64,000 nucleotides of DNA from a virus, in the IMG/VR virus record IMGVR_UViG_3300047094_002472; one strand, written 5' to 3'. The position numbers were made by a program, and so were the translations under genes. Positions 12,574 to 43,404 of the stretch are shown here, one piece after another (the first letter of the stretch is position 1; every line of letters begins with the position of its first letter). The notes under the pieces were generated by a model. That model did not search any database and was not told where the DNA came from. It worked only from the letters and a program-made list of their open reading frames with translations.

Positions 12574-12601
12574 ATAGTAGTTGTGGCCCGTACTTGGTCA
12601 A
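12574..12601 (-). promoter_or_regulatory. Sigma70-like promoter upstream of ssb (TTGACC-16-TACTAT)
   Basis: Consensus-like hexamers about 45 bp upstream of the ssb start. Confidence 0.5.
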
Positions 12602-15077: not shown

Positions 15078-16954
15078 ACTGTAACTCCTGATTTGAGAAG
15101 ATCTGTTATAGTCATCACCTTATCCAACATTGCCACACCCAAAATATCAAACTTGATAATTCCAATAGATTCTAGATCTTGCATTTCCATACCAGCTATT
15201 AGCTGATCGTTTTTGCTGTCATAAACCATTGGACAAGATTCTTTTAGTGGGTGAGAACTGATAGCGATACCAGCGGCATGTTTAGACTGATTGGACTTTG
15301 TGCCCTCTAATCTTATAGCTTGTTCGAACCTTTTAGCAAGAGGTCCTTGTAGTTCGTTTTTCTCATCTATGAAACACCATTCTCTGAGCTTATCTGGGTT
15401 GTTTTCCAGAGCCCATCTAATAATGGAAGACTCTCCGGTCTCTTCTTTCATCTCTTGTAGTTCGTCAGCAATCTTTGCTTCGTCTGGTATGTTCTTAGTA
15501 ATCTTATTCATTTCTTCGAAAGAGATATTTCCGTAAACTCTCAATACGTCTTTTAACGCCCCTCTACCCTTAATAGTATTGAAGGTAATCATTTGAGATA
15601 CCTTGTCTTGACCATACTGGTTTTTAATATACTCAATAATATCTTCTCTCTTATTGATAGGTACGTCCACATCGATATCTGGCATTGAAATATGATCCTT
15701 AGAATTTCTACCAGCATTATAAAATCGATCAAACATTAGGTTATATTTTATGGGGTCTATACTGGTAATGCCCACAAGGTATGAAACCAAACACCCAGCA
15801 GCAGAACCTCGTCCGGGACCGGGAAGCCAGCCATTTTGACGAACATAATTCACGATATCTTGCACAATTAAGAAGTAACTGGAAAGCCCAGCCCCCTGTA
15901 ATACCTCAAGTTCGTATTTGATTCTATCAACATACTCAGGCTGACTATCTTCTGATATCTTATTGGCTATCTTACCTTTCCATCCACCACGACAAAGATG
16001 TCTTAAGTATTCATCTGGGTTTAGTCCGTTAGGACAAGGGAATGGTGGCAGCAAAGGATTATTAAGAATACTATATTCCTCGCACATATCCGCTACTAAA
16101 TTAGTGTTCTCTATTTCTTCTTCAGTATGAAGCTCTGCTATTTCTTCTTGAGATAAAATATGAAAATTATCGGAGGTAAAGAAGCATGACATTGGTACTT
16201 CTTCATTATTACTAACCTTACGACTAATATCTGGTAGAGTTGTTTTTAGATTATTACAAAGCAAGATTCTTTGATCAACAGCATCAGATTTTTCACAATA
16301 ATGAGCGTCGGGTGTGCAGACTACTTTTGTGTTAGTCTTTTTTCCAAGTTCACGAATCATATCCGACAGATCTTTTTGAATTGGAGTATTATGCACATCC
16401 ATTAGTTGGGATTCTAGAAACAGGTTTTCTTGACCAAAAATACCCTTTAATTTGCCAATAGTTTCCGTACCCACCGATAGCCAATCCTTAGACGGTTTAT
16501 TCTCTGGTAAGATTTTATCGGCTAATAGAGATCCTAGGTGACCACACATACCAATCAGATTACCGTCACAAAAGGCTCCCAAAGCCTCCAGATTGAGCCG
16601 TGGCTTGTGATAATAAAAGTCGGGTCTGTTGGATTCAGATACCAAACGTATTAAATTTTTCCACCCCTTGAGGTTTTTGGCCAACAACAAGAAATGGGTC
16701 AAGTTTCTATTAGAAGGATCTTGAATGGAGGGATCCTTATCGCATAGATAGATCTCGCAACCCAACAAGGGCTTTATACCATTCTGCTTCATCTCTGTAT
16801 AAAACTTAACAGCTCCGGCTATATTGCCATGGTCTGTTAATGCACAAGACGTAGCACCAATATCTATACATCTTTTAGCTATATTTTTAGGCTTACTCAA
16901 GCCATCCAATAGTGAATACATTGAATGGCAATGGAGAGGAACATATTTTTTCAT
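15074..16954 (-). CDS. dnaE: DNA polymerase III alpha subunit, N-terminal half (PHP and catalytic palm) of a split dnaE
   Basis: HCHSMYSLLDG, TDHGN and TPDAHY (PHP); GPGRGSAAGCLV, MPDIDVD and KFDILG (catalytic Asp residues). Confidence 0.95.
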   Translation of the reverse strand: MKKYVPLHCHSMYSLLDGLSKPKNIAKRCIDIGATSCALTDHGNIAGAVKFYTEMKQNGIKPLLGCEIYLCDKDPSIQDPSNRNLTHFLLLAKNLKGWKNLIRLVSESNRPDFYYHKPRLNLEALGAFCDGNLIGMCGHLGSLLADKILPENKPSKDWLSVGTETIGKLKGIFGQENLFLESQLMDVHNTPIQKDLSDMIRELGKKTNTKVVCTPDAHYCEKSDAVDQRILLCNNLKTTLPDISRKVSNNEEVPMSCFFTSDNFHILSQEEIAELHTEEEIENTNLVADMCEEYSILNNPLLPPFPCPNGLNPDEYLRHLCRGGWKGKIANKISEDSQPEYVDRIKYELEVLQGAGLSSYFLIVQDIVNYVRQNGWLPGPGRGSAAGCLVSYLVGITSIDPIKYNLMFDRFYNAGRNSKDHISMPDIDVDVPINKREDIIEYIKNQYGQDKVSQMITFNTIKGRGALKDVLRVYGNISFEEMNKITKNIPDEAKIADELQEMKEETGESSIIRWALENNPDKLREWCFIDEKNELQGPLAKRFEQAIRLEGTKSNQSKHAAGIAISSHPLKESCPMVYDSKNDQLIAGMEMQDLESIGIIKFDILGVAMLDKVMTITDLLKSGVTV

Positions 16955-29140: not shown

Positions 29141-29395
29141 TTACTTGGAGACAAGTTTATTATATAGGAGCAAACTTAATACGCCGCCAGCAACTCCCAT
29201 AAAAATACCAGCTGGACTAAGACTTTGGTATGTTCCTAATAGATATAAAACAGCGCCGCCCATATATGAGCCAGCAACCCCTAGGGCAATTGTTTTGGTC
29301 ATATTGAAATTCTCATCGCCCGGCACCAAGCTTTTGGCTATGGAACCAACAAATAAACCATAAACACACCATACTAAAATATTAAACATTTGCAT
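29141..29395 (-). CDS. GlsB/YeaQ/YmgE (transglycosylase-associated) family membrane protein
   Basis: W..GL.VG.IAK.LVPG..TIALGVAGS..GG..G..GV.G..L pattern; three hydrophobic segments. Confidence 0.8.
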   Translation of the reverse strand: MQMFNILVWCVYGLFVGSIAKSLVPGDENFNMTKTIALGVAGSYMGGAVLYLLGTYQSLSPAGIFMGVAGGVLSLLLYNKLVSK

Positions 29396-29789
29396 TCTCC
29401 ACTAAGGTTTTAATTTCATCGTCCGTGAGGGTTTCTCCTATACTTAATATTGATTCTATAAGCTTAAATCCGTATTGTTCGTACTCTTCTTTGGTCATTT
29501 CTCTCTTTAGTACTCTTTTTATTCTTAGGCGAGTGAACCAGCCTCTTTTATTGCTAAATTCTTTTATCTCTTCTCCGTATGCTGCACATTTTTCGTCATG
29601 TGTCATATACTGAGTTCTATTTTTATTGCATTCCTGTAATATACGAATAGAGGTCAAAATAACACTAATAATCATTAGTATAGCTATTACACTACCAAAT
29701 TTTTCATCACCAGCCAAACCCGCGTCTACCAGAACCTTTTTAGCTATCGCCTCTAGTTTCTCAGAGTCTTGTTTATTTGGCTTATGCAT
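29382..29789 (-). CDS. Single-TM membrane protein
   Basis: FGSVIAILMIISVILTSI hydrophobic segment followed by a basic region. Confidence 0.6.
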   Translation of the reverse strand: MHKPNKQDSEKLEAIAKKVLVDAGLAGDEKFGSVIAILMIISVILTSIRILQECNKNRTQYMTHDEKCAAYGEEIKEFSNKRGWFTRLRIKRVLKREMTKEEYEQYGFKLIESILSIGETLTDDEIKTLVENANV

Positions 29790-29791
29790 AA

Positions 29792-30081
29792 TTATTTTTT
29801 ACTCACCTTGGTTTTGCACTGACCATCTTCGCACTCCGACTGACTCGCACCTTCTTCTGGTTCGCAATATCCGCAGTCAACTTTTTTAATGTTGTCTCCG
29901 CTCATATACCAACCTTTGCCTTTGCAAACTGGGCAGTCTTTTCTTTTGTATTTTTTTGTATTCTCAATGCTTTTTGCTTTGATTATGGCGCCAGATAAAG
30001 TTACTACTGCTGTTGTTGATCCATAATAAGATGAACCAAATAACATAGTATAAATTACCAAACCAGAAATTAATTTATTCA
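29792..30081 (-). CDS. Secreted or membrane-anchored protein with a CxxCxGxG zinc finger
   Basis: Hydrophobic N-terminus; CPVCKGKG..CGYC..C.DGQC; start 30081 through a TAATG overlap. Confidence 0.6.
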
Positions 30082-30258
30082 TTATTTTCTCCAAGGGAGT
30101 GGAACAATATCTATTAATCTCTTAAGAGGTTTTGGTCTAACGGGTTTAGAGGGATTGTTTACGGGTGATTTATCCGCAAAAATTTTAGCTAAACGAATTA
30201 CAAGATCGGCTATAATAGAAATTAGCCTATTTAAAGCGATTTTATCAATAAGTCTCAT
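30082..30258 (-). CDS. Small amphipathic basic protein, 58 aa (not in the ORF track)
   Basis: MRLIDKIALNRLISIIADLVIRLAKIFADKSPVNNPSKPVRPKPLKRLIDIVPLPWRK; its stop overlaps the next ATG. Confidence 0.6.
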   Translation of the reverse strand: MRLIDKIALNRLISIIADLVIRLAKIFADKSPVNNPSKPVRPKPLKRLIDIVPLPWRK

Positions 30259-30300
30259 CGGTCAACCCTTTTAAAAAGGACTTCTCTAATAATATTTAGA

Positions 30301-30306
30301 TACACC
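30301..30306 (-). promoter_or_regulatory. GGTGTA motif (candidate phage promoter)
   Basis: - strand ATCGGTGTATCTAAATATT, about 43 bp before the ATG at 30258. Confidence 0.55.
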
Positions 30307-30310
30307 GATT

Positions 30311-31237
30311 TTATAGATAGCTATCAAAACCGTAGTCTGGTAGTTTTTGCAGAGGAAAGCCGTTGAAACTAGAGAATGAGTATGACCCGTTTTGTTTCAA
30401 CATGCCTTCGGCCACATCAGAATGGATTAGGAAAGAGCCGTCTGGTATTGGACCCCACTCTGGATGTCCACCATCATTCCATTTACCCCAGCTATTTTGT
30501 ACTAAAAAGCTTGTATCACCTTTGGTGTCGTCACAAGCAATAAAAGCCATACAATGAGCCCAACTTCCGCTAGTTCTAGAGTAGCCCTTGCTATCTCTCT
30601 TATTACTAAAGCCATAATTAGAACAAACAGCTATTCCATATCCATTAGCTAGGGCGTCGCGAGCTTCTTCTACTGTTCTTACCAACGAAGCTGTTTTAAT
30701 TTGGTGGTCATTAGCCAGATCTATTACCGCATCTGGAACGCCTCGACCGCCCCAACCAGCTCCCAGCATACCATTATATTTAGTTAGATCCACAACGCCC
30801 TTATAATTTTGTCTAACAAGAATACCGCCAATTTTACTAACAAACTCAGCAGCCTTACTGCCGGTCATGCCTTCGCCACTCCATCCTCTACTACCATAGA
30901 TTGCTTCAGTAGCACCTCTCGCTATCCATGCTTCTCTTTCTCCCCCAACATGTATTTCTACAGCTCTGCTAATGTCGCAGGCGTTTCTCGTTCCATGGCT
31001 TACGCAATCCCCAGTAACTTGTCTTTCTTCGTATGGTTTTTTATCAAACTGATATACAGATTTGTATGGTAGGCTTAATTTGTTTTTTCCAGTATTAGTA
31101 ATTCTTTTACTAGCATCACCAAACAATGGATACTTTAAAGTTTCCATCAAGTGGTCAAACTCTTTTTGATTCCACAATGCGCCTTCGTATCCCTGTCTAT
31201 ATTTATTATACCATTCTTGGGGTGTTAGTCTTGGCAT
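30311..31237 (-). CDS. Papain-like (C1) cysteine peptidase
   Basis: Q-VTGDCVSHG (oxyanion Gln and catalytic Cys), WAHCM (His), VQNSWG (Asn). Confidence 0.85.
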   Translation of the reverse strand: MPRLTPQEWYNKYRQGYEGALWNQKEFDHLMETLKYPLFGDASKRITNTGKNKLSLPYKSVYQFDKKPYEERQVTGDCVSHGTRNACDISRAVEIHVGGEREAWIARGATEAIYGSRGWSGEGMTGSKAAEFVSKIGGILVRQNYKGVVDLTKYNGMLGAGWGGRGVPDAVIDLANDHQIKTASLVRTVEEARDALANGYGIAVCSNYGFSNKRDSKGYSRTSGSWAHCMAFIACDDTKGDTSFLVQNSWGKWNDGGHPEWGPIPDGSFLIHSDVAEGMLKQNGSYSFSSFNGFPLQKLPDYGFDSYL

Positions 31238-31740
31238 TATTTACTAGCCTCATTATATGCCCACGCAAGAGCATTAAAACCTTCTACAGCTTTTACTCTT
31301 AATTCTGGTGATAGATTAATATTATCATCACCAACAGCAGCCACAACCACCTCTTTGGACTCTTTAGCCAAGTCGGGATATTTACCCTTAATATCTAAAC
31401 GCAACATAACCCCCGACAAACTATTAGCCTGACGAATTTCTTCGGTATTTTTAATAACAGTATCCTCACCATCCAACTCCACTAGTCTGCCCAAATCCAA
31501 CATTAGATCTCTCAATCTCTTGAGGTCTGACTTAGCAGCACTATAAGACTTTAATAGAGATACTACTTCTTCTGCCTCTTTTTTAAGATTGGCTTCTGTT
31601 GGGGCTGGTAGCTCTAGAACATCTATTGCTACGGGTCTGTTGGGCAGAACTAATAGGTTTGAGAGGTCTGGTTTAATTAGACCAATAATTATTAGTATCG
31701 CACCAACGACCAATACTAAATTTTTTGTATTCAAAGTCAT
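31237..31740 (-). CDS. N-terminally membrane-anchored protein
   Basis: LVLVVGAILIIIGLI TM, Pro-rich linker, helical domain; start 31740 through an ATGA overlap. Confidence 0.65.
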   Translation of the reverse strand: MTLNTKNLVLVVGAILIIIGLIKPDLSNLLVLPNRPVAIDVLELPAPTEANLKKEAEEVVSLLKSYSAAKSDLKRLRDLMLDLGRLVELDGEDTVIKNTEEIRQANSLSGVMLRLDIKGKYPDLAKESKEVVVAAVGDDNINLSPELRVKAVEGFNALAWAYNEASK

Positions 31741-32120
31741 GATAAGGTATCCTGCTTTTTTGCGCACACATTTGGGGATAAAAAGGGAAACATTTGATCG
31801 GCCACCTTTACCGCCTCAACACAACCACTTTGTACGGCCAAATCTCTAGTTTGTTTCCAGCTAACAATTAACTTAAAGAAAACATCTTCATTGTTCTTAG
31901 TCTCAACACTCACCACTGGCTTGGCTACTACTGGTAGTACCGGTGCGCCGGGATTTAAAACCCCTTTGACCTTTTCTGTTAAATTTAGAACTAATTTTTG
32001 CACGGGGCTTAACTTATCCTTAAATAAAACCCATAAAACCAAACCCACGCCAGCATAAAGAGCCAAATCCATTGTGGATAGTTTGCTAGCAAATTGATCA
32101 AAACTCTCTGTAAAATTCAT
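31737..32120 (-). CDS. Single-TM membrane protein
   Basis: LALYAGVGLVLWVLF TM; GAGG RBS. Confidence 0.65.
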   Translation of the reverse strand: MNFTESFDQFASKLSTMDLALYAGVGLVLWVLFKDKLSPVQKLVLNLTEKVKGVLNPGAPVLPVVAKPVVSVETKNNEDVFFKLIVSWKQTRDLAVQSGCVEAVKVADQMFPFLSPNVCAKKQDTLS

Positions 32121-32131
32121 GGCGTTTCCTC

Positions 32132-32554
32132 TTATTTGTCTGAGACCTCTGGTACACTATTTGGATCTGTAAAAATTCCGCTCTTTCTAAAAATTTCAAC
32201 CATAGAGTCTATAGCTGAACTCACGAGCAACATCAAAAGAGCTTTTGTATATTTACTTATAATAGGCTGTAGTACAACTGGAACATAGGGGACGGTTACA
32301 ACTAAAAATACCTTATCATAAAACATACTAAGCATGGCTAATGCTATAGTCTTTTTATTAGACCCCTTTAATGACGGGTTTGATGTCTCTATGATCTTTA
32401 TTGTTTCTGCTATAGCGATCTGTAATATTCCCCAAGCCTGAGACATAGCCACAGACTTTGAGCCAGATAGAGACTTTTTAACTTTATCAATTAGTGCTTC
32501 TAACGAAGAAGAGAGTTCTATACTAAGTATCTGATTTTGAATAGATGTGGTCAT
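32132..32554 (-). CDS. Hypothetical helical, hydrophobic protein
   Basis: Start moved to the ATG at 32554, which follows an AGGAG RBS. Confidence 0.6.
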   Translation of the reverse strand: MTTSIQNQILSIELSSSLEALIDKVKKSLSGSKSVAMSQAWGILQIAIAETIKIIETSNPSLKGSNKKTIALAMLSMFYDKVFLVVTVPYVPVVLQPIISKYTKALLMLLVSSAIDSMVEIFRKSGIFTDPNSVPEVSDK

Positions 32555-32579
32555 ACATAGTGCTCCTATATCGAGTATA

Positions 32580-32585
32580 TACACC
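32580..32585 (-). promoter_or_regulatory. GGTGTA motif (candidate phage promoter)
   Basis: - strand GCGGTGTATATACTC, about 26 bp before the ATG at 32554. Confidence 0.55.
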
Positions 32586-32599
32586 GCACAGGAAAATGA

Positions 32600-32911
32600 T
32601 TAAACGCTTTTGGTTTTGCTGCGAGGCTTTCTTTTTTTACGAGCATTTGCCTTATTGGCTTCTTTTCTTTCTTGCTCTGTGGCAGTACTCCACCAAGTTT
32701 GCTTTAGATTAGTTCGTCCATTAATATACTTAAATAAGACTGTTAATTGTCCTATTATTAGTATAGTAGCTTCTAATCCCTTGCTAGTTTCTTGAATCAA
32801 ATCTTCTTTTTGCTGATTATCTTCAAGTAAACCACATAAGTATAGACCGCTAAACAAAAAACTAACCAGAGTGAACCAGAATTCACTGGTTCTATATCCA
32901 GGCTTAATCAT
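32600..32911 (-). CDS. Holin-like small membrane protein
   Basis: KPGYRTSEFW followed by two hydrophobic segments and a very basic C-terminus. Confidence 0.55.
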   Translation of the reverse strand: MIKPGYRTSEFWFTLVSFLFSGLYLCGLLEDNQQKEDLIQETSKGLEATILIIGQLTVLFKYINGRTNLKQTWWSTATEQERKEANKANARKKRKPRSKTKSV

Positions 32912-32932: not shown

Positions 32933-33145
32933 TTATGGTGCAACTATAGAGCCGCCATCAACTAGAGTAACCAATATGCCATTAGTAAATCTATTGCTAT
33001 ATTTTGTTTCAATAGAAGGCATATCTGGTGTGTTTTTCACATAGGTGTTTAATAGTGAACTATTACCTGTGGCAGTAGTTGAAACAACAGATGTTCCGTT
33101 TTTAATTTGGTTGGCAGAAACAGCCTTTTGAATATTATTGGCCAT
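32933..33145 (-). CDS. Small hypothetical protein, 70 aa
   Basis: AAGGT RBS; preceded by a GGTGTA motif. Confidence 0.55.
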   Translation of the reverse strand: MANNIQKAVSANQIKNGTSVVSTTATGNSSLLNTYVKNTPDMPSIETKYSNRFTNGILVTLVDGGSIVAP

Positions 33146-33192: not shown

Positions 33193-33198
33193 TACACC
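33193..33198 (-). promoter_or_regulatory. GGTGTA motif (candidate phage promoter)
   Basis: - strand CCGGTGTATATCAAATT, about 48 bp before the start at 33145. Confidence 0.55.
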
Positions 33199-33200
33199 GG

Positions 33201-35105
33201 TTAGCTACTAAAATTAGAGAATTCGTATTTGTTTTGAACCGCTTGTAAATCTATTGGTGTTAAGCTATAGTTCTCGCCGGGGCTTAAGCTTTGTATAATA
33301 CTATTAACTATAGAGTATCTATTAGTGATAAATGGTCCGCCGGTAGGTGTCCACCAAGTTGTTAAAACAACCAGCTCGTTATCTATAATTAAAAATACTG
33401 GATTTCCACTGTCGCCTACTATTATGTCTTCGGTCCATGAAGCGAATTGATTCGGAGATGGTACTATTGGAGTACTATATGAAGCGTTGGGGTTTATATT
33501 ACTGACACTGGCCATTTGGTAGTACTCGATGTTTGGCGAGGTTCCAATTCCGAACAAATTGGCTCCAGACCAAAGTTTTAATATGGCTTTTTCTTCTTGA
33601 TCTAGGGCTACAGCATAAAGCCAAGGATTCATACTAAAAGAGCTAATCTGCAATCCAAGACTATCATATACTGAGGCCAAAATACTACTACTAAGATAAT
33701 CCATAAAATTAGTTGGTAATACTTTTGCTATTTTTATATTACTAGGCACTTCGCTATCTAAAAGAGCTACTGCAATATCGGTACTCTCATCACCATACTG
33801 TATAATATTTCTACGAATAGCATTATTATTCTCATCAACAAATATTATTGGCGTCCCACCATTTGGCAATATGCTGGTAACAAAGTGTTTAGCGAATAAA
33901 ACGTGTTTTCTGGTTATGAGAGTACCACCGCGAGTATTCCACGCCGCACCGCTACGCTGTGCTGGACTAAAGCAGCTAATATTACTTACTCCATTTATCC
34001 AGCAGCTGGGGTTTCGGACCCATATTCCAGCATCACCAACGCCACCGTATGGATTCTGAGAAGAATAGACTAGGCAATCAGTAGCTGGATTTTTACCAAC
34101 CAGCCTACTTGCTGTACCAGAGTTAATGTGTTGTGGTATAATGTTTTTACTAGTGCTTTGTTTACGTATGCATCTAAATGATCTAGGATAATATTTATCA
34201 TAGACTGCTTGTAGGTCTATTGGGGTTAAAGAATATCCTTGTCCGGGACTTAATTCTTCTATTATAGCATTAACTTGATCATATCTCTTGGTAATAAAAG
34301 GACCATTAGTAGGAGTCCACCAAGTGGTTAAAACTACCAATTCGTTATCTATGATATAAAAAACTGGGTTTCCACTGTCTCCAACAACAATATCTTCTGT
34401 CCACTGTGGATATGGATTAATGCTACCTTGGGGACCGGAAAAATTATCAAAAGCAATTATATGATATAGACTATTATAGTCTACAGTTGTAGATGTTTTT
34501 ACATGAGCTTTTTCTTCTTGATCTAAGCCAACACCCAAGATGCCTAATAATCCATAGTCCAAATCGCCACCGGTCGGCCACCCTAAAACCATATAGTCTT
34601 GATAGTTTTTAGGTAAAACTTTGGCTATCTTTATATTAGATGGAACTTCACTATCTAATAGAGCTATTGTTATATCAGAAATATCGTCGCCATATTGTAT
34701 TATGTTTCGCCTTATGGCGTTATTATTTTCATCAACAAAGATTAACGGGGTTCCACCGTTAGGAAGAATGCTGGTTTTATAGTGTTTGGCAAATAGAACG
34801 TGTTTGCGAGTTATGAGTGTGCCACCTCTGGTATTCCAAGATGCTCCGCTTCTTTGCGCTGGGCTAAAGCAACTAATATTGCTTACTCCATTTATCCAAC
34901 AGTTGGAATTGCGAACCCAAATTCCCGCATCGCCCACGCCGCCATAAGGATTTTGTGATGAGTATACAAAACGGTCGGTAGAGGGATTTTTACCAGATAA
35001 TCTAGAAGCTGTTGAGGAGTTTATATGATTTGCTATTATAGTCTTATCTATAAGACTAGGCATATTACTTGTTAATAATTTATTGTCTTTAAGGTAGATT
35101 GGCAT
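33201..35105 (-). CDS. Protein with two tandem trypsin-like (PA clan) serine protease domains
   Basis: Each half has TLITRKHVLFAKH (His), DI(T/A)(I/V)ALL (Asp) and VGDSGNP (Ser). Confidence 0.75.
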   Translation of the reverse strand: MPIYLKDNKLLTSNMPSLIDKTIIANHINSSTASRLSGKNPSTDRFVYSSQNPYGGVGDAGIWVRNSNCWINGVSNISCFSPAQRSGASWNTRGGTLITRKHVLFAKHYKTSILPNGGTPLIFVDENNNAIRRNIIQYGDDISDITIALLDSEVPSNIKIAKVLPKNYQDYMVLGWPTGGDLDYGLLGILGVGLDQEEKAHVKTSTTVDYNSLYHIIAFDNFSGPQGSINPYPQWTEDIVVGDSGNPVFYIIDNELVVLTTWWTPTNGPFITKRYDQVNAIIEELSPGQGYSLTPIDLQAVYDKYYPRSFRCIRKQSTSKNIIPQHINSGTASRLVGKNPATDCLVYSSQNPYGGVGDAGIWVRNPSCWINGVSNISCFSPAQRSGAAWNTRGGTLITRKHVLFAKHFVTSILPNGGTPIIFVDENNNAIRRNIIQYGDESTDIAVALLDSEVPSNIKIAKVLPTNFMDYLSSSILASVYDSLGLQISSFSMNPWLYAVALDQEEKAILKLWSGANLFGIGTSPNIEYYQMASVSNINPNASYSTPIVPSPNQFASWTEDIIVGDSGNPVFLIIDNELVVLTTWWTPTGGPFITNRYSIVNSIIQSLSPGENYSLTPIDLQAVQNKYEFSNFSS

Positions 35106-35109
35106 AGCA

Positions 35110-36147
35110 TTATACTATTCCAAGGATAGAGGAACCGTTGATGCCTTTGTCGTAGGCGATAATCACATTGCCGATGATCCCGCGTCGGTTGTAAGACGCG
35201 CCGCGAAACGTCGCATCGCCATCGACTGTGCCGCCGTCGTTGACGTACGAACTGTCGTTGAATGTCGCATTGCCATGAACGCGACCGTAGAAAGTGTATC
35301 CCGGCCCAAAGGCGCCGTTGTACGCAGAATCATTAAACGTCGCATCGCCGTAGACATCGCTGCCGTTGAGCGAACTGTCGTTGAATGTCGCATCGCCGCT
35401 GACGGTGCCGTAGTTGGTCGAACTGTCGTTAAACGTCGCGTCTCCGGTGACGGTGCCGGTGCCTGCGTTGAACGAACTGACATTAAACGTCGCGTCTCCG
35501 GTGACGGTGCCGTAGTTGCGCGAACTGTAGTTGAACGTCGCGTTGCCGTTGATGGTGCAGCCATCGTTGTTGACCGAATAATCGTTGAACGTCGCGTTGC
35601 CGGTGACGGTGCCGCTGTTGATCGAACTGTCATTAAACGTCGGGTCTCCGGTTACGGTGCCGTAGTTTTGCGTGCTGTTGTTGAACGTCGCGTCTCCGGT
35701 GACGGTGCCGATGTTGTACGTGCCGTCGTTAAACGTCGCGTCTCCGGTGACGGTGCCGTAGTTTTGCGTGCCGTCGTTAAACGTCGCGTTGCCGTTGACG
35801 GTGCCGATGTTGAGCGCGCCGTCGTTAAACGTCGCGTTGCCGTTGATGGTGCCGGTACTGCCGTTTTGCGTACCCATATTGATCGCCGCTTGGCCGGTGA
35901 CGGTGATTGCGACCAAGAGAGACACAGACACATCGCCGGGCCGGACGAGCGTCAGGTTCACCACAGTTGGCGCACTGCCGCTGTTGATCGCCACGCTGGC
36001 ACTCAAAACGACACTATCGCTGCTGGTGGGCAGGGCAGACGCGGCAACGGTGTGGGCAGAGTCCGTCCACCAGTTGCCGAGAGTCTGCCAGTCGCCAGGC
36101 AGTTCAGCCGCGACGTCTGCCGCACCGTTGAAGTAAAATGTTGCCAT
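35110..36147 (-). CDS. Beta-helix-type repeat protein (putative tail spike or adhesin), GC-rich
   Basis: About 15 copies of a ~16-aa G(D/N)ATFNDxxxNxGTVT repeat; AGGAG RBS. Confidence 0.7.
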   Translation of the reverse strand: MATFYFNGAADVAAELPGDWQTLGNWWTDSAHTVAASALPTSSDSVVLSASVAINSGSAPTVVNLTLVRPGDVSVSLLVAITVTGQAAINMGTQNGSTGTINGNATFNDGALNIGTVNGNATFNDGTQNYGTVTGDATFNDGTYNIGTVTGDATFNNSTQNYGTVTGDPTFNDSSINSGTVTGNATFNDYSVNNDGCTINGNATFNYSSRNYGTVTGDATFNVSSFNAGTGTVTGDATFNDSSTNYGTVSGDATFNDSSLNGSDVYGDATFNDSAYNGAFGPGYTFYGRVHGNATFNDSSYVNDGGTVDGDATFRGASYNRRGIIGNVIIAYDKGINGSSILGIV

Positions 36148-36164
36148 TTATTTTCTCCTAATAA

Positions 36165-36479
36165 TTACTTTTTAACCGGAGGAACTGGTGGTAAAAATAA
36201 GCCTTCAAGACTAGTTTTAACATCAGAGCCAAGCAACTCAAGAACTCTTGCTTCAACTTGGACCTGAGTATAATCGCCAGCGGCCGCATAAGCATCACCT
36301 TCCCAAAGAACTAGTGGTCTTGGGCATGGACGAATTTGAGCCACAACACTCTTTCTAGTAGCATTATCAATAATAGTAACATCTAATGATGAGAGAGTAA
36401 TGGGCTTTTGAACTCTTACTTCACCATTAGCTCTGGTAATAGTAGGTGGTTGAATAGTAACGGGATTGGGTAAATTCAT
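36165..36479 (-). CDS. Hypothetical protein (tail-fibre-associated region)
   Basis: Start MNLPNP at 36479, after an AAGGAG RBS. Confidence 0.6.
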   Translation of the reverse strand: MNLPNPVTIQPPTITRANGEVRVQKPITLSSLDVTIIDNATRKSVVAQIRPCPRPLVLWEGDAYAAAGDYTQVQVEARVLELLGSDVKTSLEGLFLPPVPPVKK

Positions 36480-36510
36480 AATTTTCTCCTTTTTAAAATT
36501 GATCGTAATG

Positions 36511-37755
36511 TTAGTAGCCGGGAACAAAAGCAATTACATCCCATTTGTCTCTTCCAGCATGATATGTGGCAGCTAAAATGTCCATCTTATTCGCTGCTGT
36601 ACTCCAAGGTAGTGGTGAGGTGGCGCTGCTAGGAATGTTAAATTTGTTGCCCAGAGTGATGGTTCTGCCGCCAGTAGAGTCTTGGGAGATTCTCCAGCGG
36701 AGTGTTTTACCGTTAACGGGATTGGTTGGGTTGGCTAGTGTGGTGTTGCCTGTAAGGGTTATATCGAATATGTCACCAGTAGCGGCGTCGGTGTTTATTG
36801 TTGAAGAGTATGATGAACTAATAACGGTTGTTGAACCGCCCAATACGGATGTTCCGTTACTGTCTAGGATGTCACCGTCTATTGGTAGTGTTAACCTACC
36901 ATCTGTACCAAAAGTCCAGTGATTATTATTATTGTCTGTACCAACAATAACATCTCCACCATTTTTTTCAATCTTAACATATTGATCATCATCTCCTAAA
37001 TAAATATCAACCGTTGAAGGATCTCCTGAGATAAGATGAACATGACTATGTTCTGAACTAGATATCCCATTATTAGTTACAGTAACAAATTGACCAGTTG
37101 GCATACCATTAGATTCTTCAAAATTATAATATAGTGTTGGATCATTTTGTGTCTGATAATTGGTTGATCTTGTTCCATCCACACTTGTTAATGTTAGAGT
37201 AAATTCAGAGATATTGCTATTAGCTGGTATAGTCCAAGTAATACTTTCTGCGTCTGGACCGGTTGTACTTACGAAAGTTAGTTTACCAGTTAGTGCTCGA
37301 CCCAATGATTGTGGGGTAACTCCAGGACCAGAGATTGTATAGTTTACTGTTCCAAAATAAGCCCAGTTTTGTAAAGTAACTACAATTGTGATGGGATTAC
37401 CATATTCAATATAATTACTAGAACTGATTGCCCAAATAGCTGCGGTTGGACGAATTACTAAGCTTTGTCCAGCGACTGCTGTGGGTGGTGATAGTGCAAC
37501 AGCATTATTTGTTTCACTTAGTATACTACCGTTGGGTAATGTTAAAGAACCGTTGCTACCAAGAACAGCATAATTTGATAATATTGAGTTTATCTCGGCT
37601 TCAGTATAATATCTATTATCATGATTATGAGGCAAATTAACTATGTCTGTTAGTTTTATTTTGTTTGTTTGAGTACCAGCAGCATTTGTGGCCGGAACAA
37701 CAGCGTCATTTTCTGCAACACCAACTGGTAATTGTGAAATTTTAATTTGGGTCAT
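36511..37755 (-). CDS. Putative tail-fibre-related structural protein
   Basis: N-terminal IKISQLP; HNHDNRYYTE; WTFGTDG.LTLP; C-terminal TLANPTN..QDSTGGRT..D.L domain. Confidence 0.65.
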   Translation of the reverse strand: MTQIKISQLPVGVAENDAVVPATNAAGTQTNKIKLTDIVNLPHNHDNRYYTEAEINSILSNYAVLGSNGSLTLPNGSILSETNNAVALSPPTAVAGQSLVIRPTAAIWAISSSNYIEYGNPITIVVTLQNWAYFGTVNYTISGPGVTPQSLGRALTGKLTFVSTTGPDAESITWTIPANSNISEFTLTLTSVDGTRSTNYQTQNDPTLYYNFEESNGMPTGQFVTVTNNGISSSEHSHVHLISGDPSTVDIYLGDDDQYVKIEKNGGDVIVGTDNNNNHWTFGTDGRLTLPIDGDILDSNGTSVLGGSTTVISSSYSSTINTDAATGDIFDITLTGNTTLANPTNPVNGKTLRWRISQDSTGGRTITLGNKFNIPSSATSPLPWSTAANKMDILAATYHAGRDKWDVIAFVPGY

Positions 37756-37792
37756 AGTATTATCCTATAGGTAAAAATTATCTAACAATATT

Positions 37793-37798
37793 TACACC
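37793..37798 (-). promoter_or_regulatory. GGTGTA motif (candidate phage promoter)
   Basis: - strand TTGGTGTAAATATTG, about 38 bp before the start at 37755. Confidence 0.55.
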
Positions 37799-37805
37799 AA
37801 AACTT

Positions 37806-40409
37806 TTAATAAAATAACAGAGCTCTAAAACACTCTGCACCTAGCTGTCTATTTATCCACAAATACTTTAAGTGGTCGGGTGTTTCGAATATTTCCATTC
37901 TATTACTAATGCCAAGACCTGTATTTGTAGTAGCTTGAGTATAAGGAAAGAGTCCAGCGCCATGCATCGTATAAGTATCCAAGTCCAGATAATAACATCT
38001 TTGTGTTAAATCTTTACTAAAATAAATACGGTCATTGCCATCATAAGCATACTGTGAACTACTGCCGAGAGTTTCCGTTTGTGGCGTGGTTGAAACCAAA
38101 TCCCAAGAGTCAGTATTAATATTATATCTTTCAAAACCAAGAGAGCCACCACCCCTAGATATAATTAGATGATTTCCTCTCTTGTTAGCGTCTGAGACAC
38201 CAAAGTTCCATGTGAAATTAAGACCCGCACCTTTGGCAACAGGTGCTAGAATTGAATAGGTTGTACTATTGCTTGTTGCTGCTGTGGTTACAGCGGCTGA
38301 AAAAGTTAATGTGTTGCTAGTATTAGATGATACAGTAGCCTCTTGCGAAACACCCGCACCACCAGTAAACTTTACCCTGCGACCGGCCCAAATATTTGTA
38401 ACCCAGTTTTTGGATGTGTCCTGAAGTGTTGTTGTGGAATGTGTGCCGGTTGCGATGCCATTGTCTAATGCTCCAAAAGCATTTGGTTTTGAAATAACAT
38501 ACTTCGTTGTGGCGTTAACTGGCGTAGTTACAGACGTAGTAAAGGTTAATGAGTTAGCAGTATTAGATGCTATTCTAAAAGATTGTCCTGTGGCTGATGC
38601 GCTTAATGATGTTGTCATATAGCAAACATAACCAGCCCACTGATTAGTGGTCCAATTCTTTGTAGAGTCAACCAATACTGTGGCACTATGAGCAGTAAAT
38701 GTGGCATTGGCCGAAGGAGTTCCGCTAATAGTATAGGTATAAGTTGTAGCGCCAGTAACAGTAATTGTTGCTGTTATATTATACAAAGAGGCATCAGCCC
38801 CTGTTGCACCAGAATGAGTGACAGAGTATCCTGTTTTAAAGTTGTGACTCTGTACCGTTGTTACAGTAGCTGTTGTTCCAGACCTTGTTGTTGAGGATAT
38901 TGCTATGGGCTTATGCGACCCATATGCTGCCGCGCCGCTTCTTGCAACACCGCCGTCTATTTTTTTATTACCAACAATCATATCTTCTTCTACGCAATAA
39001 GTATAGATACTAGAGTGTGCGCCAAGAGCCAGATATAAAAGATCAGTATCTCCTTGGATTTTAAAGGTTGATGTATTATCTGGAGTGACATCAAAAGGTG
39101 TCGCAACAGTTATGCTAGTAGAGGTATTACTTAATACTATTCTTTGTTGACCCGCGCCGGTGCCACCAGTAATAAGCACTACATAATTAGCCCACCTGTT
39201 GGTTGACCAACTTTTTGACGAGTCGGTGATGGATGTGCTTGTTCCAGAGGATGCTGTACCAGCATCAAAACCTTCTATCATATATTGTGATGTTGAATTT
39301 GGTGCAGTACCGGCGTTGCTCCATGTTAATGTATTACTAGTATTAGAAACTATTTGTCTAAGTTGTCCAACACCAGTTCCGCTAAAAATACGAACCCAGT
39401 AACCAGCATACTGATTAGGCGTCCAGCTTTTCGACGTATCAACCAAGGAGGTTGTTGTTCCAGAAGTTGCTGTACCCTTTGACCATATAGATGAATTTTC
39501 TGTTGTTCTTTCTACGGTTCCATCTGTTATGGTGATATTACTAAGAACACTACCCTGTGCTGTTCGATAATACCAAATATCAGCAGCAATGTCATAATAT
39601 GTTAAGTTTGGTGATGCATTTGTATATAGGTATATACCACCAGACTGAATAACAAATCTTGAGGTTTCATCCGGCTGAGTGGTCCAGTTGGAGTCTACTG
39701 TAAGAGTACCAGACTCTATGGTATATATTGATTGAGAGCCTGCTGTGACAGAAATAGCTGTGGCCATCGGCGCCATCGCATCAACGTTTTGTGCTAACTG
39801 ATTAATATCTGCCAGGGTTATAGTTGTGGCATCATTATATAAAACTTTTCTAATTTGAGAGATACCAGAACCAAATAAAATTCTTACTTGGTATCCTACC
39901 CACTGGTTGATGGTCCAGTTTTTAGTAGTGTCGGTGATTCTAACTAACGATGTGCTACTTGTTACAGCGGTTGATACGCCGGTGTCAGCAACAACAACAT
40001 CTGAAACATTTATTATGGTTCTTTGTTGACCAGCACCAGTGCCGCCCACTATCTTAATATCAAATCCCTTTAAAATTTTATCATATATAGTATCTGTGGT
40101 AATAGTGTTAGCAGTAGCACTAATGACCCTACCATTATGGCCAGCAGCACCAGCAAATTTCATGCTGCTAAATGTTGTTGGGGTCACAACCGGACTCGCA
40201 AGTTGTAAATATGTATCGGTGTATGTGTCATATCTCCAAAAACTAGCATTAGCAATTAAATAATAAATATATCTTCCGTGATTAACGTGGTATAAACTAT
40301 TGTCCGCAGAGCAGGCTGAACTCACAGCAGAGGATACTGCGGGAGCAAATCTTAGCCACTCCCATACCGGAAGGTCTACTTGGGTTCTTAGGGTATTAGT
40401 TAAAGCCAT
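37806..40409 (-). CDS. Putative virion fibre or receptor-binding protein with internal ~65-70 aa repeats
   Basis: Repeated D(T/S)(S/T)K(N/S)W(T)xNQW.G..V....GTG.GQ.R.I.SNT..TLT units, plus beta-propeller-like YD motifs at both ends. Confidence 0.65.
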   Translation of the reverse strand: MALTNTLRTQVDLPVWEWLRFAPAVSSAVSSACSADNSLYHVNHGRYIYYLIANASFWRYDTYTDTYLQLASPVVTPTTFSSMKFAGAAGHNGRVISATANTITTDTIYDKILKGFDIKIVGGTGAGQQRTIINVSDVVVADTGVSTAVTSSTSLVRITDTTKNWTINQWVGYQVRILFGSGISQIRKVLYNDATTITLADINQLAQNVDAMAPMATAISVTAGSQSIYTIESGTLTVDSNWTTQPDETSRFVIQSGGIYLYTNASPNLTYYDIAADIWYYRTAQGSVLSNITITDGTVERTTENSSIWSKGTATSGTTTSLVDTSKSWTPNQYAGYWVRIFSGTGVGQLRQIVSNTSNTLTWSNAGTAPNSTSQYMIEGFDAGTASSGTSTSITDSSKSWSTNRWANYVVLITGGTGAGQQRIVLSNTSTSITVATPFDVTPDNTSTFKIQGDTDLLYLALGAHSSIYTYCVEEDMIVGNKKIDGGVARSGAAAYGSHKPIAISSTTRSGTTATVTTVQSHNFKTGYSVTHSGATGADASLYNITATITVTGATTYTYTISGTPSANATFTAHSATVLVDSTKNWTTNQWAGYVCYMTTSLSASATGQSFRIASNTANSLTFTTSVTTPVNATTKYVISKPNAFGALDNGIATGTHSTTTLQDTSKNWVTNIWAGRRVKFTGGAGVSQEATVSSNTSNTLTFSAAVTTAATSNSTTYSILAPVAKGAGLNFTWNFGVSDANKRGNHLIISRGGGSLGFERYNINTDSWDLVSTTPQTETLGSSSQYAYDGNDRIYFSKDLTQRCYYLDLDTYTMHGAGLFPYTQATTNTGLGISNRMEIFETPDHLKYLWINRQLGAECFRALLFY

Positions 40410-40429
40410 AATTTATTTGTCCTATTGTA

Positions 40430-40759
40430 TTAAGAAAAATTAAGTTTGCTGCGAATACAGTTTGCATATGTGTTGCGAGAAATATCTATAAATTGTCTAT
40501 GATCCATATTAGAAATAGTAGTGACGTTGCTTAAGTTGCCAAGATTTGCAGTACCAGATATACCTTCTATCGTAACTCTTTGTCTATTTGCACTGTCAAC
40601 TACCGCATTACTTTCTAATAGTTTAACTATTCGTCTCAAAAGAATATTTGCTTCTTCCGAGGCTAATTGATTAGCGCCAATTTGATCACTACTAATAGTT
40701 ACGGGAGAACTATTGCTATTGTTAGCTTGGCCGTTTTGATTTTGTGGAAAATAGGTCAT
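40430..40759 (-). CDS. Small structural-region protein
   Basis: GAGG RBS; directly upstream of the fibre gene. Confidence 0.6.
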   Translation of the reverse strand: MTYFPQNQNGQANNSNSSPVTISSDQIGANQLASEEANILLRRIVKLLESNAVVDSANRQRVTIEGISGTANLGNLSNVTTISNMDHRQFIDISRNTYANCIRSKLNFS

Positions 40760-40792
40760 TGTAGCCTCTGTTTTTGATTATTCTATATAATA

Positions 40793-40798
40793 TACACC
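40793..40798 (-). promoter_or_regulatory. GGTGTA motif (candidate phage promoter)
   Basis: - strand TGGGTGTATATTATATAG, about 34 bp before the start at 40759. Confidence 0.55.
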
Positions 40799-40800
40799 CA

Positions 40801-43404
40801 TTACACCATAATCCAGTTCGACCCATCGCTAATCACAGATATAGACATATCCATTCTGTTAAGACCTATAGAATCATAACCGTCTATCGTTTGAGATGAA
40901 TGTGGATATAAATATATGGTATCTGATGTCTTATTTTTAAGAGTATATTGAGCTTTGTTATTAATCGCAGTTGGTAATATTAGTTTGTATCCCACAGCAC
41001 TATCTTTAAAAATATATACGTATTCTTTTGTGATGCTACTAAAATCACCAGTAATATCGATGGGATCATCATGAACCAACACGGACGTTGCCAAATACTC
41101 AAGTGGTACTCCTGTTGCAACAATAGAAACCACCCTATTTTCAAAATCGCTAATATCTGTACTAATATGCTGATGGCCAACTAAAGAGTAGTCACCAGAT
41201 GCTTGTTTATTATTTATCTGTGTTTGTAGGTTGCTAATATCGGTATTAGTTGCATAGTCGCCAGTGGCTTGTTTATTGTCTAGAGCAGTTTGTAGTCCAG
41301 TAATATTATCAATAATGTGGGTATGTGTGGCATTGGCATAATTTCCGGCTGGCTGCAAACCAGAAGTTGATATACTTAGGGTGTCTGCTGATGTATTATA
41401 AGTTAAAACTATATTACTACCAGCTATTAATGATGTGCTAACAATTGACTCTACGCCAGTATTGAAGTTAGAAATGTCAGAATATGTATGATTATGCCCA
41501 ACTGAAGACTTAAGGTCTAATGCTGTTTGGGTCGCACTACTGATTGGTTTATTAGCATCGCTAGTGTTATCGACACTACCTAGACCAACCATGCTTTTGG
41601 TAATGCCAGCCACAGTTCCCGTAAAGGTCGGGTTAGCAAGAGGAGCTTTAAGGTCTAAAGCACTTTGCTGTGCTGTGCTAACTGGCTTGTTAGCGTCACT
41701 GGTGTTGTCAACGTTGCCTAATCCAACATCATTTTTGACTAGACTAATATTACCGATTTTACCAGCCACGCTTTGTACGGGAGCAGCAGCACTAGCTCTG
41801 GCGTCGGTATAGTATTTATTGACACCGCCTTCTGCTATGCTATCCGTACTACCTGGGGAAGCAGTAATCTCTATGTACGAGCTTCCACCCCAACGGTATG
41901 TTTTATTGTTATCCAAGGATATATAAATTTTTCCAGTTTCGCCAACGACAGGAAATGTGGAGAGGTTTAAGTACTCTAAAACATCATCTATATAGCTTGG
42001 TAATTGAACCGCTGGTACAAGCCCATTAATCAATGTAGCATAATTACCAACAGGTTGTTTATTGTCTAGTGTATTCTGCAGATTACTTATATCTGATATG
42101 TTGTGGCCATGAGCCAGAGCAGCTTTATTATCTAGTGCTGTTTGTAAGCCATTAATTGTGGCAATATCTTGGGTACCAGTATGATTGGCTCTTTGTATAG
42201 AATGTGCTTGAGCAGAGTTTGCTTTTGTTGAGGCGTCTATGGCGGCGTTTGCTTGTACAGCCGCATCTGCTGAAGCCTGTGGAACACTAACTGGTTTATT
42301 TATATCGCTGATGTTATCAACATTGCCTAAACCGACCATGCTTTTAGTTATACCGTTAACAGTGCCAGTAAAAGTTGGGCTAGCAAGTGGAGCCTTAAGA
42401 TCTAAAGCACTTTGCTGTGATGTGCTAACCGGCTTATTGGTATCGCTAGTGTTATCAACATTGCCTAGGCCAACCATGCTTTTGGTTATGCCATTCACAG
42501 TACCGGTAAACGTGGGATTAGCAAGAGGAGCTTTGCTGTCTAGACCGGTCTGCAATCCACTTACTTCGCTGATAGCGTGGTTATGGGTAGCAGCAGCATA
42601 ATTCCCAGCGGGCTGTTTGCTGTCTAGTGCAGTTTGAACCGCTGTGCTAATGGGCTTGTTAGCATCGCTAGTGTTGTCAACATTACCTAGATTAACGTCG
42701 TTTTTATTGAGTGTGACCGCACCAGTCTTGCCGGATACGCTTTGTACTGGTGCTGCTGCGCTTGCCCTAGCATCTGTATAATACTTATTAGTATTGCCTT
42801 CTGGTACAGAGTCTGATGATCCTGGTGAAGCACTAATCTCTATGTATCCTGTACCACCCCAACGATAGACTTTACTATTATCTAAAGATACATAAATTTT
42901 ACCACTCTCACCGCTTATAGGAAAAGATGATAAATTATTATATTCTAGGATATCGTCAACATAACTTGGTAGTTGAGACGGAGGTATCAATCCATTAATT
43001 AAAGTGGCATAGTTACCTACCGGCTGTTTATTATCAATTTGACTTTGTAGACCACTTATTGTAGATGATATATTATTATTTATAAATGTAGATAAATTGT
43101 TTATATCTTCTGGATTATGGCTATGAGTTTTATTAGCATAGTCTCCGGTAGAGGATATTGTTATTGATGGCTGATTAATATCATATTCTATATCTATTCC
43201 GGATCCAGCATTAATAACAGAGAATAGTCTAGAGTCTATATTAGAATTAAAATCTGATGGTAGTAAAGCAACACTATTGGTTATCTCTAAATTAACAGCT
43301 GAAGAAGTTATAATATCTATATTAGATGGATTTTGTCCCACCGTCGTTTCTATTTCAACGCTGGTAACCTGGGATGGAGAAATTTCAACAGTAAATATAC
43401 TCAT
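40801..43404 (-). CDS. Tail fibre protein with phage tail repeats
   Basis: Repeated VGLGNVDNTSDANKP(V/I)S, H.H.I..I.GLQTALD.K and KAPLANPTFTG; duplicated QLPSY.DD.LEY..GKIY..YRWGG..YIEI block; C-terminal SDGSNW. Confidence 0.8.
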   Translation of the reverse strand: MSIFTVEISPSQVTSVEIETTVGQNPSNIDIITSSAVNLEITNSVALLPSDFNSNIDSRLFSVINAGSGIDIEYDINQPSITISSTGDYANKTHSHNPEDINNLSTFINNNISSTISGLQSQIDNKQPVGNYATLINGLIPPSQLPSYVDDILEYNNLSSFPISGESGKIYVSLDNSKVYRWGGTGYIEISASPGSSDSVPEGNTNKYYTDARASAAAPVQSVSGKTGAVTLNKNDVNLGNVDNTSDANKPISTAVQTALDSKQPAGNYAAATHNHAISEVSGLQTGLDSKAPLANPTFTGTVNGITKSMVGLGNVDNTSDTNKPVSTSQQSALDLKAPLASPTFTGTVNGITKSMVGLGNVDNISDINKPVSVPQASADAAVQANAAIDASTKANSAQAHSIQRANHTGTQDIATINGLQTALDNKAALAHGHNISDISNLQNTLDNKQPVGNYATLINGLVPAVQLPSYIDDVLEYLNLSTFPVVGETGKIYISLDNNKTYRWGGSSYIEITASPGSTDSIAEGGVNKYYTDARASAAAPVQSVAGKIGNISLVKNDVGLGNVDNTSDANKPVSTAQQSALDLKAPLANPTFTGTVAGITKSMVGLGSVDNTSDANKPISSATQTALDLKSSVGHNHTYSDISNFNTGVESIVSTSLIAGSNIVLTYNTSADTLSISTSGLQPAGNYANATHTHIIDNITGLQTALDNKQATGDYATNTDISNLQTQINNKQASGDYSLVGHQHISTDISDFENRVVSIVATGVPLEYLATSVLVHDDPIDITGDFSSITKEYVYIFKDSAVGYKLILPTAINNKAQYTLKNKTSDTIYLYPHSSQTIDGYDSIGLNRMDMSISVISDGSNWIMV

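Follow-up and report, generated by a model that had tools for sequence, protein, structure and literature searches.

By what means might a phage burst its host when no known endolysin family can be detected in its complete relatives? The question is raised by nine co-oriented open reading frames (ORFs; g1–g9) on the minus strand at positions 29141–32911 of a 64,000-nucleotide stretch of the IMG/VR virus record IMGVR_UViG_3300047094_002472, the whole of which is referred to here as the window. The cassette is built around g5, a predicted papain-fold cysteine peptidase, and an original prediction made from the sequence alone had proposed a lysis module in which this protease occupies the endolysin slot. 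On balance we lean towards that view, in the form that the cassette is a late-expressed module attacking the envelope, most likely a phage lysis system with g5 as its degradative enzyme. The fold and catalytic triad, the conservation of the block, a shared regulon, the failure to detect known endolysin families in relatives and a probable extracytoplasmic site of action speak for it, whereas lytic activity and the substrate are still its conjectural parts.

The assignment of g5 as a C1 peptidase with an intact Cys/His/Asn triad was borne out both by profile and by fold. The g5 family comprises 1987 homologues in a 90% database and 1490 clusters at 50% identity, and lies beyond the reach of current models: g5 matched no Pfam, PHROG or NCBIfam model, with nothing for PF00112 (gathering threshold, 20.7 bits) at E ≤ 0.1, and the relatives P0122 and P0213 attain 17.0 and 15.5 bits for PF00112, below the threshold. 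A single-sequence search of the PDB with g5 returned noise only; a profile of 73 diverse homologues retrieved papain-family chains only (caricain, 1.4e-4; xylellain, 3.4e-4), with HMMER aligning a stretch of g5 to His159-Asn175-Ser-Trp of caricain. The AlphaFold2 (AF2) model of g5 (predicted local distance difference test score, pLDDT, 94.5; predicted template modelling score, pTM, 0.93) has xylellain as its best Foldseek match (6e-9), and VIA superposes it on xylellain (3OIS) with a Z score of 21.0 and a root-mean-square deviation of 2.9 Å over 230 residues, and on papain and cathepsins with Z scores of 17–19; 330 chains reach Z ≥ 8, the best 50 entries listed being papain-family enzymes throughout. 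Profile and model together place g5 in a very distant lineage of the papain (C1) fold, outside the current Pfam model.

The predicted catalytic set consists of Gln73, Cys78, His228 and Asn248-Ser249-Trp250, with Cys78 at the N-terminus of the central helix of the model (residues 78–96). All 73 sequences have Cys78 and His228, Gln73 is kept in at least 90% and Ser249 and Trp250 are nearly invariant; in a closer 10-sequence alignment Gln73, Cys78, His228, Asn248, Ser249 and Trp250 are all invariant. Mature papains align to model residues ∼48–292 and proenzymes from residue 5, such that residues 5–47 of g5 overlay the C-terminal part of papain-family propeptides, which hints at, and proves nothing about, a self-inhibitory N-terminal segment. 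No hydrophobic N-terminus or export signal is present in g5.

A natural marking of the same residues is provided by inteins with LAGLIDADG endonuclease domains, owing to which ∼32 of the 150 best representatives are 420–1200 amino acids (aa) long. The first insertion site, D77|C78 (...TGD|C...HN|CVSH), uses the catalytic Cys78 itself as the +1 nucleophile; the second, H228|C229 (...WxH|C...HN|CM), falls immediately after His228; and the third lies beside Asn248, after QN or after NSWG. Some protease proteins carry two inteins; g5 of the window carries none. Inteins home to conserved active sites of genes that their hosts cannot lose, and their placement at the catalytic positions is evidence both that the triad is correctly assigned and that the gene is important: the sites would mark a conserved active site in a gene that phages do not readily lose. 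Intein-bearing relatives occur within P0121–P0264 (e.g. P0122, P0127, P0150 and P0164) and at L108:7992-10733.

The original prediction had recognised no muramidase, amidase, M23 or CHAP endolysin in the window, and the same proved true of relatives. Six-frame Pfam searches (E ≤ 0.01) were made in the genomes of relatives rather than in the window's own genome, namely five relatives rated 100% complete by CheckV, one with terminal repeats and one (G001) whose g5 is 98% identical to that of the window. None of 17 endolysin-linked families, muralytic or wall-binding, was detected in the five: Phage_lysozyme, Amidase_2, SLT, Peptidase_M23, M15_4, GH25, GH19, CHAP, NlpC/P60, Amidase_3, GH108, PG_binding_1, M15_3, VanY, Glucosaminidase, Lysozyme_like and Muramidase, of which the negatives for GH19, GH108 and Muramidase are weak, as control genomes were silent for these three. 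As a positive control, dCMP deaminase was recovered from all five genomes. For Phage_lysozyme and Amidase_2, the two commonest of these families, the search was extended to 20 further records, 14 of which reach a completeness of 90% or more, again without a match.

The cassette and its associated elements are arranged as follows, in the order of reading on the minus strand.

33193–33198, minus strand: GGTGTA promoter-like element, before g0 and g1.
32933–33145, minus strand: g0, a 70-aa gene preceded by the GGTGTA at 33193.
32600–32911, minus strand: g1, 103 aa, holin-like by architecture only.
32580–32585, minus strand: GGTGTA element, before g2.
32132–32554, minus strand: g2, 140 aa, with a hydrophobic C-terminal half and two to three possible transmembrane (TM) segments.
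31737–32120, minus strand: g3, 127 aa, with one N-terminal TM segment (14–32) and a C-terminal domain with two Cys.
31237–31740, minus strand: g4, 167 aa, with a signal-anchor-like N-terminal TM segment and a predicted helical-bundle domain.
30311–31237, minus strand: g5, 308 aa, predicted papain-fold (C1-like) cysteine peptidase without a signal peptide.
30301–30306, minus strand: GGTGTA element, before g6.
30082–30258, minus strand: g6, a cationic and amphipathic peptide of 58 aa whose basic, Pro-rich tail ends in PLPWRK.
29792–30094, minus strand: g7, 100 aa, with a signal-like N-terminus, a short hydrophobic strand and a Cys-rich CxxCxGxG...CxxC domain.
29382–29789, minus strand: g8, 135 aa, with one TM segment (33–51) and a highly charged C-terminal domain.
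29141–29395, minus strand: g9, 84 aa, a probable GlsB/YeaQ/YmgE-family membrane protein with three predicted TM segments.

All nine ORFs are open at the places where they had been described as contiguous genes, and TACACC stands on the plus strand at each of the three sites (30301, 32580 and 33193) where GGTGTA had been noted. The described features were likewise found: a hydrophobic g2, TM segments in g3, g4 and g8, an amphipathic g6, and a signal with CxxCxGxG in g7. The start of g2 is most likely the ATG at 32554 rather than the GTG at 32584, because the latter overlaps the GGTGTA site; with this start the element at 32580 falls upstream of g2 and not inside it. For g4 the most likely start is the ATG at 31740. 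The corrected lengths of both proteins agree with those of homologues (141 and 163 aa in L001). The g4 stop and g5 start codons overlap (TAATG), by which the two genes are predicted to be translationally coupled. Of the nine proteins, g9 alone gave a usable match in searches of Pfam, PHROGs and NCBIfam.

Where such a module might act is suggested by rare relatives in which a single polypeptide combines a TM anchor, a g4-like domain, the C1 domain and a g7-like Cys-rich domain; a dedicated search for further fused forms yielded 11 only, and no named lysis genes were found in the neighbourhoods of fused forms (L109, L110). The anchor of these proteins is N-terminal and hydrophobic, with a basic N-flank and an acidic or Gly/Pro-rich C-flank; the g4-like domain is related to g4 by blastp (4e-9) and by hhalign (probability 99%, E 2.3e-18, 152 columns); and the Cys-rich part is a short Ala/Val-rich strand followed by CxxCxGxG...GDGH...CPxC, of the g7 type. 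Several fusions end in a CPPC or CSSC stretch that is thioredoxin-like by motif, with no match to Pfam thioredoxin in the four tested (P0193, P0213, P0228 and P0171). In distant phage loci with unfused proteases, the protease gene is directly followed by one whose product starts with a signal peptide or lipobox and continues with the strand and Cys-rich domain and then a thioredoxin with WCGPC; L107 and L088 are examples, with matches to Pfam Thioredoxin at 1e-8 and 2e-9. A different arrangement is seen in L089 and L091, where the next gene joins a TM anchor, a g4-like domain and a Cys-rich domain.

The hydrophobic strand that precedes the Cys-rich domain is too short for a TM segment, and stands directly after signal-peptide cleavage sites; the fused proteins would therefore have one anchor, with all domains on one side of the membrane, and the export signals on the unfused partners indicate that this side is extracytoplasmic. 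We infer from these sequence features that the module acts outside the cytoplasm. By the same comparison g7 appears to correspond to the Cys-rich domain that other lineages have either fused to the protease or in a neighbouring gene, and g4 would be a docking partner of the protease. Six Cys are present in g7, which is also the median among 63 homologues, and a TM segment at residue 14, as in g3, is seen in 48 of the 64 distinct homologues of that protein. The AF2 model of g4 (pLDDT 83.5) is a helical bundle for which no Foldseek match was found at E ≤ 0.001, the best VIA Z score of 7.1 not being meaningful for a helical bundle.

Thioredoxin-like genes also occur in four of the five complete relatives, with the motifs WCGYC, WCQYC, WCRYC and WCPYC, far from the cassette; three of the four proteins have a signal peptide and one an N-terminal anchor. 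That of G001 (L114:1462-1860) lies ∼37 kb from the cassette, which would be ∼4 kb past the window end, and the others are found in L112, L113 and L115. A possible role for these proteins is as redox partners of the protease module. A further variant of the partner gene is the second gene downstream of the protease on a contig from a Planctomycetaceae metagenome-assembled genome (MAG; L097:4121-5101), which encodes a signal peptide, a Trypsin_2 domain (E 1.2e-17) and a C-terminal CPAC thioredoxin-like stretch.

That the nine genes belong together is argued by their conservation across 82 related phage loci, in ∼75 of which g1–g9 are collinear; the synteny check called for by the original prediction thus came out in favour of a conserved cassette. 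Median identities to the window proteins are 76% for g5, 74% for g9, 72% for g1, 65% for g3, 59% for g7, 54% for g8, 53% for g4, 48% for g2, named as the most variable member, and 44% for g6; the adjoining tail fibre is mostly unrecognisable between the same 82 loci. Extra genes enter the block at two boundaries only, g5|g6 (L047, L054, L055, L064, L065 and L082) and g7|g8 (L006, L022, L038, L039 and L045), and encode tail-fibre-like proteins of 243–951 aa, one with FGE-sulfatase-like motifs. The genes g8 and g9 form a sub-block, with g8 parted from g7 by the inserted gene in some relatives.

The element that precedes several of these genes takes the form GGTGTA(T/A) followed by AT-rich sequence, 25–50 nucleotides (nt) before the start codon. 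It was found before g1 in 43/76 relatives, g2 in 24/79, g6 in 47/75 and g0 in 16/48, over a background of 0.034 per 112 nt and with a sense:antisense ratio of 427:66 across 1.42 Mb of related loci. In these loci no copy precedes g3, g4 or g9, and a single one is found before each of g5 and g7; six relatives have it before g8, mostly those with an insertion ahead of that gene. From this distribution the cassette is predicted to consist of the units g1, g2–g5 and g6–g9, within a GGTGTA regulon that also heads the tail-fibre genes. The downstream dCMP deaminase has a sigma-70-like promoter instead of GGTGTA in at least one relative (L004). The recurrence of both block and element exceeds chance.

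The description of g1 as holin-like holds in part: the protein is small, with a strong TM segment (11–29), an acidic loop, a weaker hydrophobic segment (48–63) and a variable, strongly basic tail (18 Lys and Arg in all), three genes upstream of g5, but falls outside the described holin families. The N-terminal motif KPGY(R/K)TSEFW is invariant among 23 invariant columns. No family was found for g1 in Pfam, PHROG or NCBIfam; a profile search gave 1610 homologues, none of them named, and atlas searches with g1 and g2 returned no named relatives above 0.9, the nearest named for g1 being Phage_holin_1 at 0.81. Two relatives have a ComEA-type HHH_3 domain in place of this basic tail (L086:950-1399, E 1.6e-18; L064:8183-8665, E 9.8e-16), which makes it probable that the g1 tail binds DNA. 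The T4 antiholin RI is believed to sense periplasmic DNA (PMC8385771); with this precedent a DNA-binding tail would be compatible with a role in lysis timing, and the holin assignment stays tentative.

Two other membrane proteins may share in this function. A weak match of g2 to a PHROG holin family (phrog_6918, E 0.0037) makes it a candidate second holin or antiholin. The naming of g9 as a GlsB/YeaQ protein was supported by a full-length match (residues 5–82) to the E. coli YeaQ model PRK10457 (E 5e-8, with a score far below the equivalog cut-off), but its score against Transgly_assoc PF04226 (E 4.9e-5, 23.9 bits) fell below the curated cut-off of 25.3; the GlsB/YeaQ/YmgE family is listed in TCDB as a putative holin, 1.E.43 (PMC6281302), and g9 is a further holin candidate. 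The peptide g6 has a net charge of +9, its 61 distinct homologues being 51–68 aa long with net charges of +5 to +11 and a hydrophobic moment of ∼0.6; it resembles the phiKT disruptin (∼56 aa) in size, charge and amphipathicity (bioRxiv 10.1101/515445), a likeness of properties only and not of homology. As for spanins, the topology of g4 is i-spanin-like, but no lipobox cysteine occurs in any cassette gene of the window, and lipobox-bearing partners are found only in distant lineages (L088, L083 and L108).

With a signal-less enzyme and exported partners, endolysin logic is the simplest account. The protease g5 would accumulate in the cytoplasm, lacking an export signal and carrying its own N-terminal segment where papain propeptides lie, until late opening of the inner membrane by a cassette membrane protein, g1 and/or g2 with g9 also a candidate. 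It would then meet its already exported partners, the membrane-anchored docking domain of g4 and the Cys-rich g7; in other lineages they would be joined by an exported thioredoxin, with which the redox state of the catalytic cysteine could be maintained or established. Once there, g5 would cleave peptide bonds, either of the wall itself or of tethers in the envelope, and g6 may finish the outer membrane in the manner of a disruptin. Topology, order of events, holin function, redox role, substrate and lysis itself are all parts of this proposal.

Several observations weigh against a lysis role. Peptidase activity is a prediction from fold and residues, for g5 as for all family members, and C1-family enzymes are not known to hydrolyse peptidoglycan. 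The conservation of g5 is about that of dCMP deaminase (median identity 76% versus 79%), and we know of no inteins in endolysins. Large tail-fibre-like genes are inserted within the cassette of some relatives; g1 fits no holin family, and its HHH_3 tail in two relatives would be odd for a holin. Cellular homologues (37–47% identity) have no signal peptide and stand in ordinary chromosomal contexts, which indicates that the fold family is not envelope-specific in itself. The absence of an endolysin, finally, concerns known Pfam families in relatives, and a divergent or novel muralytic fold would escape such a screen.

These points can be accommodated in different ways. The protease could be a conventional peptidoglycan endopeptidase in an unusual fold, within an otherwise ordinary lysis process; this sub-case of the lysis reading is possible but doubtful. 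CHAP, NlpC/P60 and the C71 enzymes PeiW/PeiP are established phage wall peptidases of the papain superfamily (PMC10318531), and the structural neighbours of g5 in BFVD include phage C1-like-fold proteins named ‘Peptidoglycan binding-like’ or ‘N acetylmuramidase’ in UniProt; against this, no wall-binding domain is fused to the protease in the family members examined, and CHAP and NlpC/P60 endolysins have no such set of docking domain, Cys-rich domain and thioredoxin. Alternatively, the cassette could act on the envelope without lysis, as a periplasmic membrane-tethered protease complex that remodels the envelope in late infection, whether by destroying receptors or surface proteins against loss of progeny on debris, by superinfection exclusion or by processing exported phage proteins. 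Exported partners and the membrane-anchored fusions of some relatives fit such a complex, as do the adjoining and interleaved tail-fibre or receptor-binding genes, the DNA-binding g1 variant, which would suit the sensing or blocking of incoming DNA, and a g5 conservation higher than that of typical endolysins. We nevertheless consider it unlikely, as a signal-less g5 could reach its partners only through a permeabilisation of the membrane that would be lethal, exclusion genes are usually early or lysogenic whereas the cassette shares a late promoter-like element, and the phage would be left with no detectable lysis enzyme.

Quite unlikely is a third account, in which g5 is a cytoplasmic processing protease, engaged in virion or scaffold maturation or in cleavage at the inner face of the membrane, and its neighbours are unrelated small late genes. 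The missing signal peptide, the apparently cytoplasmic cellular homologues in housekeeping contexts, and the strong conservation and inteins, as in core replication or morphogenesis genes, would all suit it, and no HK97-type S78 prohead protease was found. However, each of the five complete relatives carries one ClpP-family protease in its late region, an alternative maturation protease; the anchored g4–g5–g7 fusions, with domains that elsewhere bear a signal or lipobox, are hard to square with capsid maturation; and the TAATG coupling ties g5 to g4. The original prediction had itself named two outcomes that would speak against it: as far as is testable, the ClpP-family alternative and the anchored fusions point away from a virion maturation protease, and the relatives combine a conserved cassette with no detected canonical endolysin elsewhere.

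The lysis reading may be carried further, to the proposal that a widespread uncultured phage clade has swapped the muralytic endolysin for a papain-fold protease machine, gated by compartment and by thiol redox. The protease would reach, or be tethered next to, an exported docking subunit, a Cys-rich domain and a thioredoxin, and would sever envelope links made of peptide or protein; glycosidases, amidases and known wall endopeptidases would thereby be joined by a fourth kind of lysis effector, with the repeated inteins in its active site marking a core gene of these phages. We regard this stronger form as no better than tentative.

The suggestion of a planctomycete host with a protein-rich envelope was rejected as unsupported for the clade: the GC content is ∼38%, and the nearest hits in the genome collection (55–79% identity) are unclassified, alphaproteobacterial and Flavobacteriales MAG bins. 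A profile search of that collection with the 10-sequence alignment gave 22 hits, seven of them in Planctomycetota, some with phage-like neighbours; the Planctomycetota homologues are more distant (40–47% identity). Among cellular homologues at 37–42% identity, those of two Mucilaginibacter species (L100:7848-8810 and L101:7950-8876) lie in a glycan-synthesis cluster after GT87, GT2 and polysaccharide deacetylase genes, that of a Novosphingobium (L103:7893-8879) beside a pseudouridine synthase and a sigma factor, and that of a Balneolaceae member (L098:7914-8849) next to an SDR gene and one of the agmatine-deiminase type.

The window comes from the large genome of an uncultured freshwater phage with IMG/VR relatives of 150–230 kb that are rated complete by CheckV, and nearly all genes of the window from 7.4 to 60.7 kb are on the minus strand. 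On one side the cassette is flanked by collagen-like tail-fibre genes (33201–43404), on the other by a nucleotide-metabolism and replication module with dCMP deaminase, PhoH, a UvsX-like recombinase, DnaB, primase, a DnaE-type polymerase in two ORFs and, called by sequence motifs, ribonucleotide reductase. No tRNAs were found in the window. The best identity of the polymerase is 33%, with no close cultured phage, and tblastn of g5 against 50,697 GenBank phage records gave no match. The two minus-strand polymerase ORFs (Pol III alpha-like), 15074–16954 and 12598–14229, match positions 41–615 and 622–1069 of PHROG 405, respectively, with a 230-aa ORF (14210–14902) between them; a split gene or a mobile-element insertion is possible. 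In the late region, ∼1.7 kb past the last tail-fibre gene, a minus-strand ORF (45100–45780) matches the deoxyribose-phosphate aldolase (DeoC) model TIGR00126 (E 2.4e-17) and adjoins, within 45100–46448, an ORF that is probably the equivalent of the relatives' ClpP-family protease.

If the lysis reading is true, the cassette represents a mode of phage lysis not described before and a large, environmentally abundant exception to the rule of muralytic endolysins for tailed phages on walled hosts, in the light of which genomes without a detectable endolysin could be re-read. It would also offer a natural case of compartment-gated and thiol-gated activation and, as a protease with docking and redox control of its own, a lytic protein of a new type that biotechnology could use. 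With the enzyme family outside Pfam, PHROGs and NCBIfam, thousands of metagenomic phage genes now stand unannotated, and the inteins, lodged at or next to each of the three catalytic residues, mark an active site in a natural and clean way that is rarely seen. Full-text literature searches gave no description of a C1/papain-type endolysin, a thioredoxin-linked lysis module or this set of partners.

Among known enzymes, g5 is most readily compared with xylellain and MEROPS family C1, with which it shares the two-lobed fold, the Gln/Cys/His/Asn-Ser-Trp set and an N-terminal segment in the propeptide position; it differs in its 10–18% identity, its score below the PF00112 cut-off, the lack of conserved disulfides and of a secretion signal, its phage encoding and predicted coupling to a membrane-anchored partner, and the inteins of its family. 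The full-length YeaQ alignment and three-TM layout of g9 suggest a GlsB/YeaQ/YmgE protein (PF04226), although its score lies just under the Pfam cut-off. CHAP, NlpC/P60 and PeiW/PeiP (C71) are likewise Cys-His enzymes of the same superfamily serving as viral lytic enzymes (PMC10318531), but belong to different families, carry wall-binding modules and lack partners of the g4, g7 and thioredoxin kinds; the searches of the relatives' genomes turned up neither CHAP nor NlpC/P60.

The arrangement of small membrane proteins around a signal-less hydrolase under late control is that of the holin–endolysin–spanin/disruptin cassettes of lambda (S-R-Rz/Rz1) and phiKT, whose gp28 disruptin has its likeness in the small cationic amphipathic g6. 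The occurrence of signal-less and signal-anchored versions of one enzyme in different lineages parallels that of soluble and signal-anchor-release (SAR) endolysins such as P1 Lyz, and thiol chemistry beside a membrane-tethered enzyme recalls the disulfide-caged SAR endolysins. In contrast to the canonical cassettes of three or four genes, however, nine are present here, with no lipoprotein o-spanin in the window, a holin candidate outside known families, a putative dedicated docking subunit and Cys-rich partner, joined by thioredoxin in other lineages, and, where a muramidase, amidase or known wall endopeptidase would be expected, a predicted papain-fold protease.

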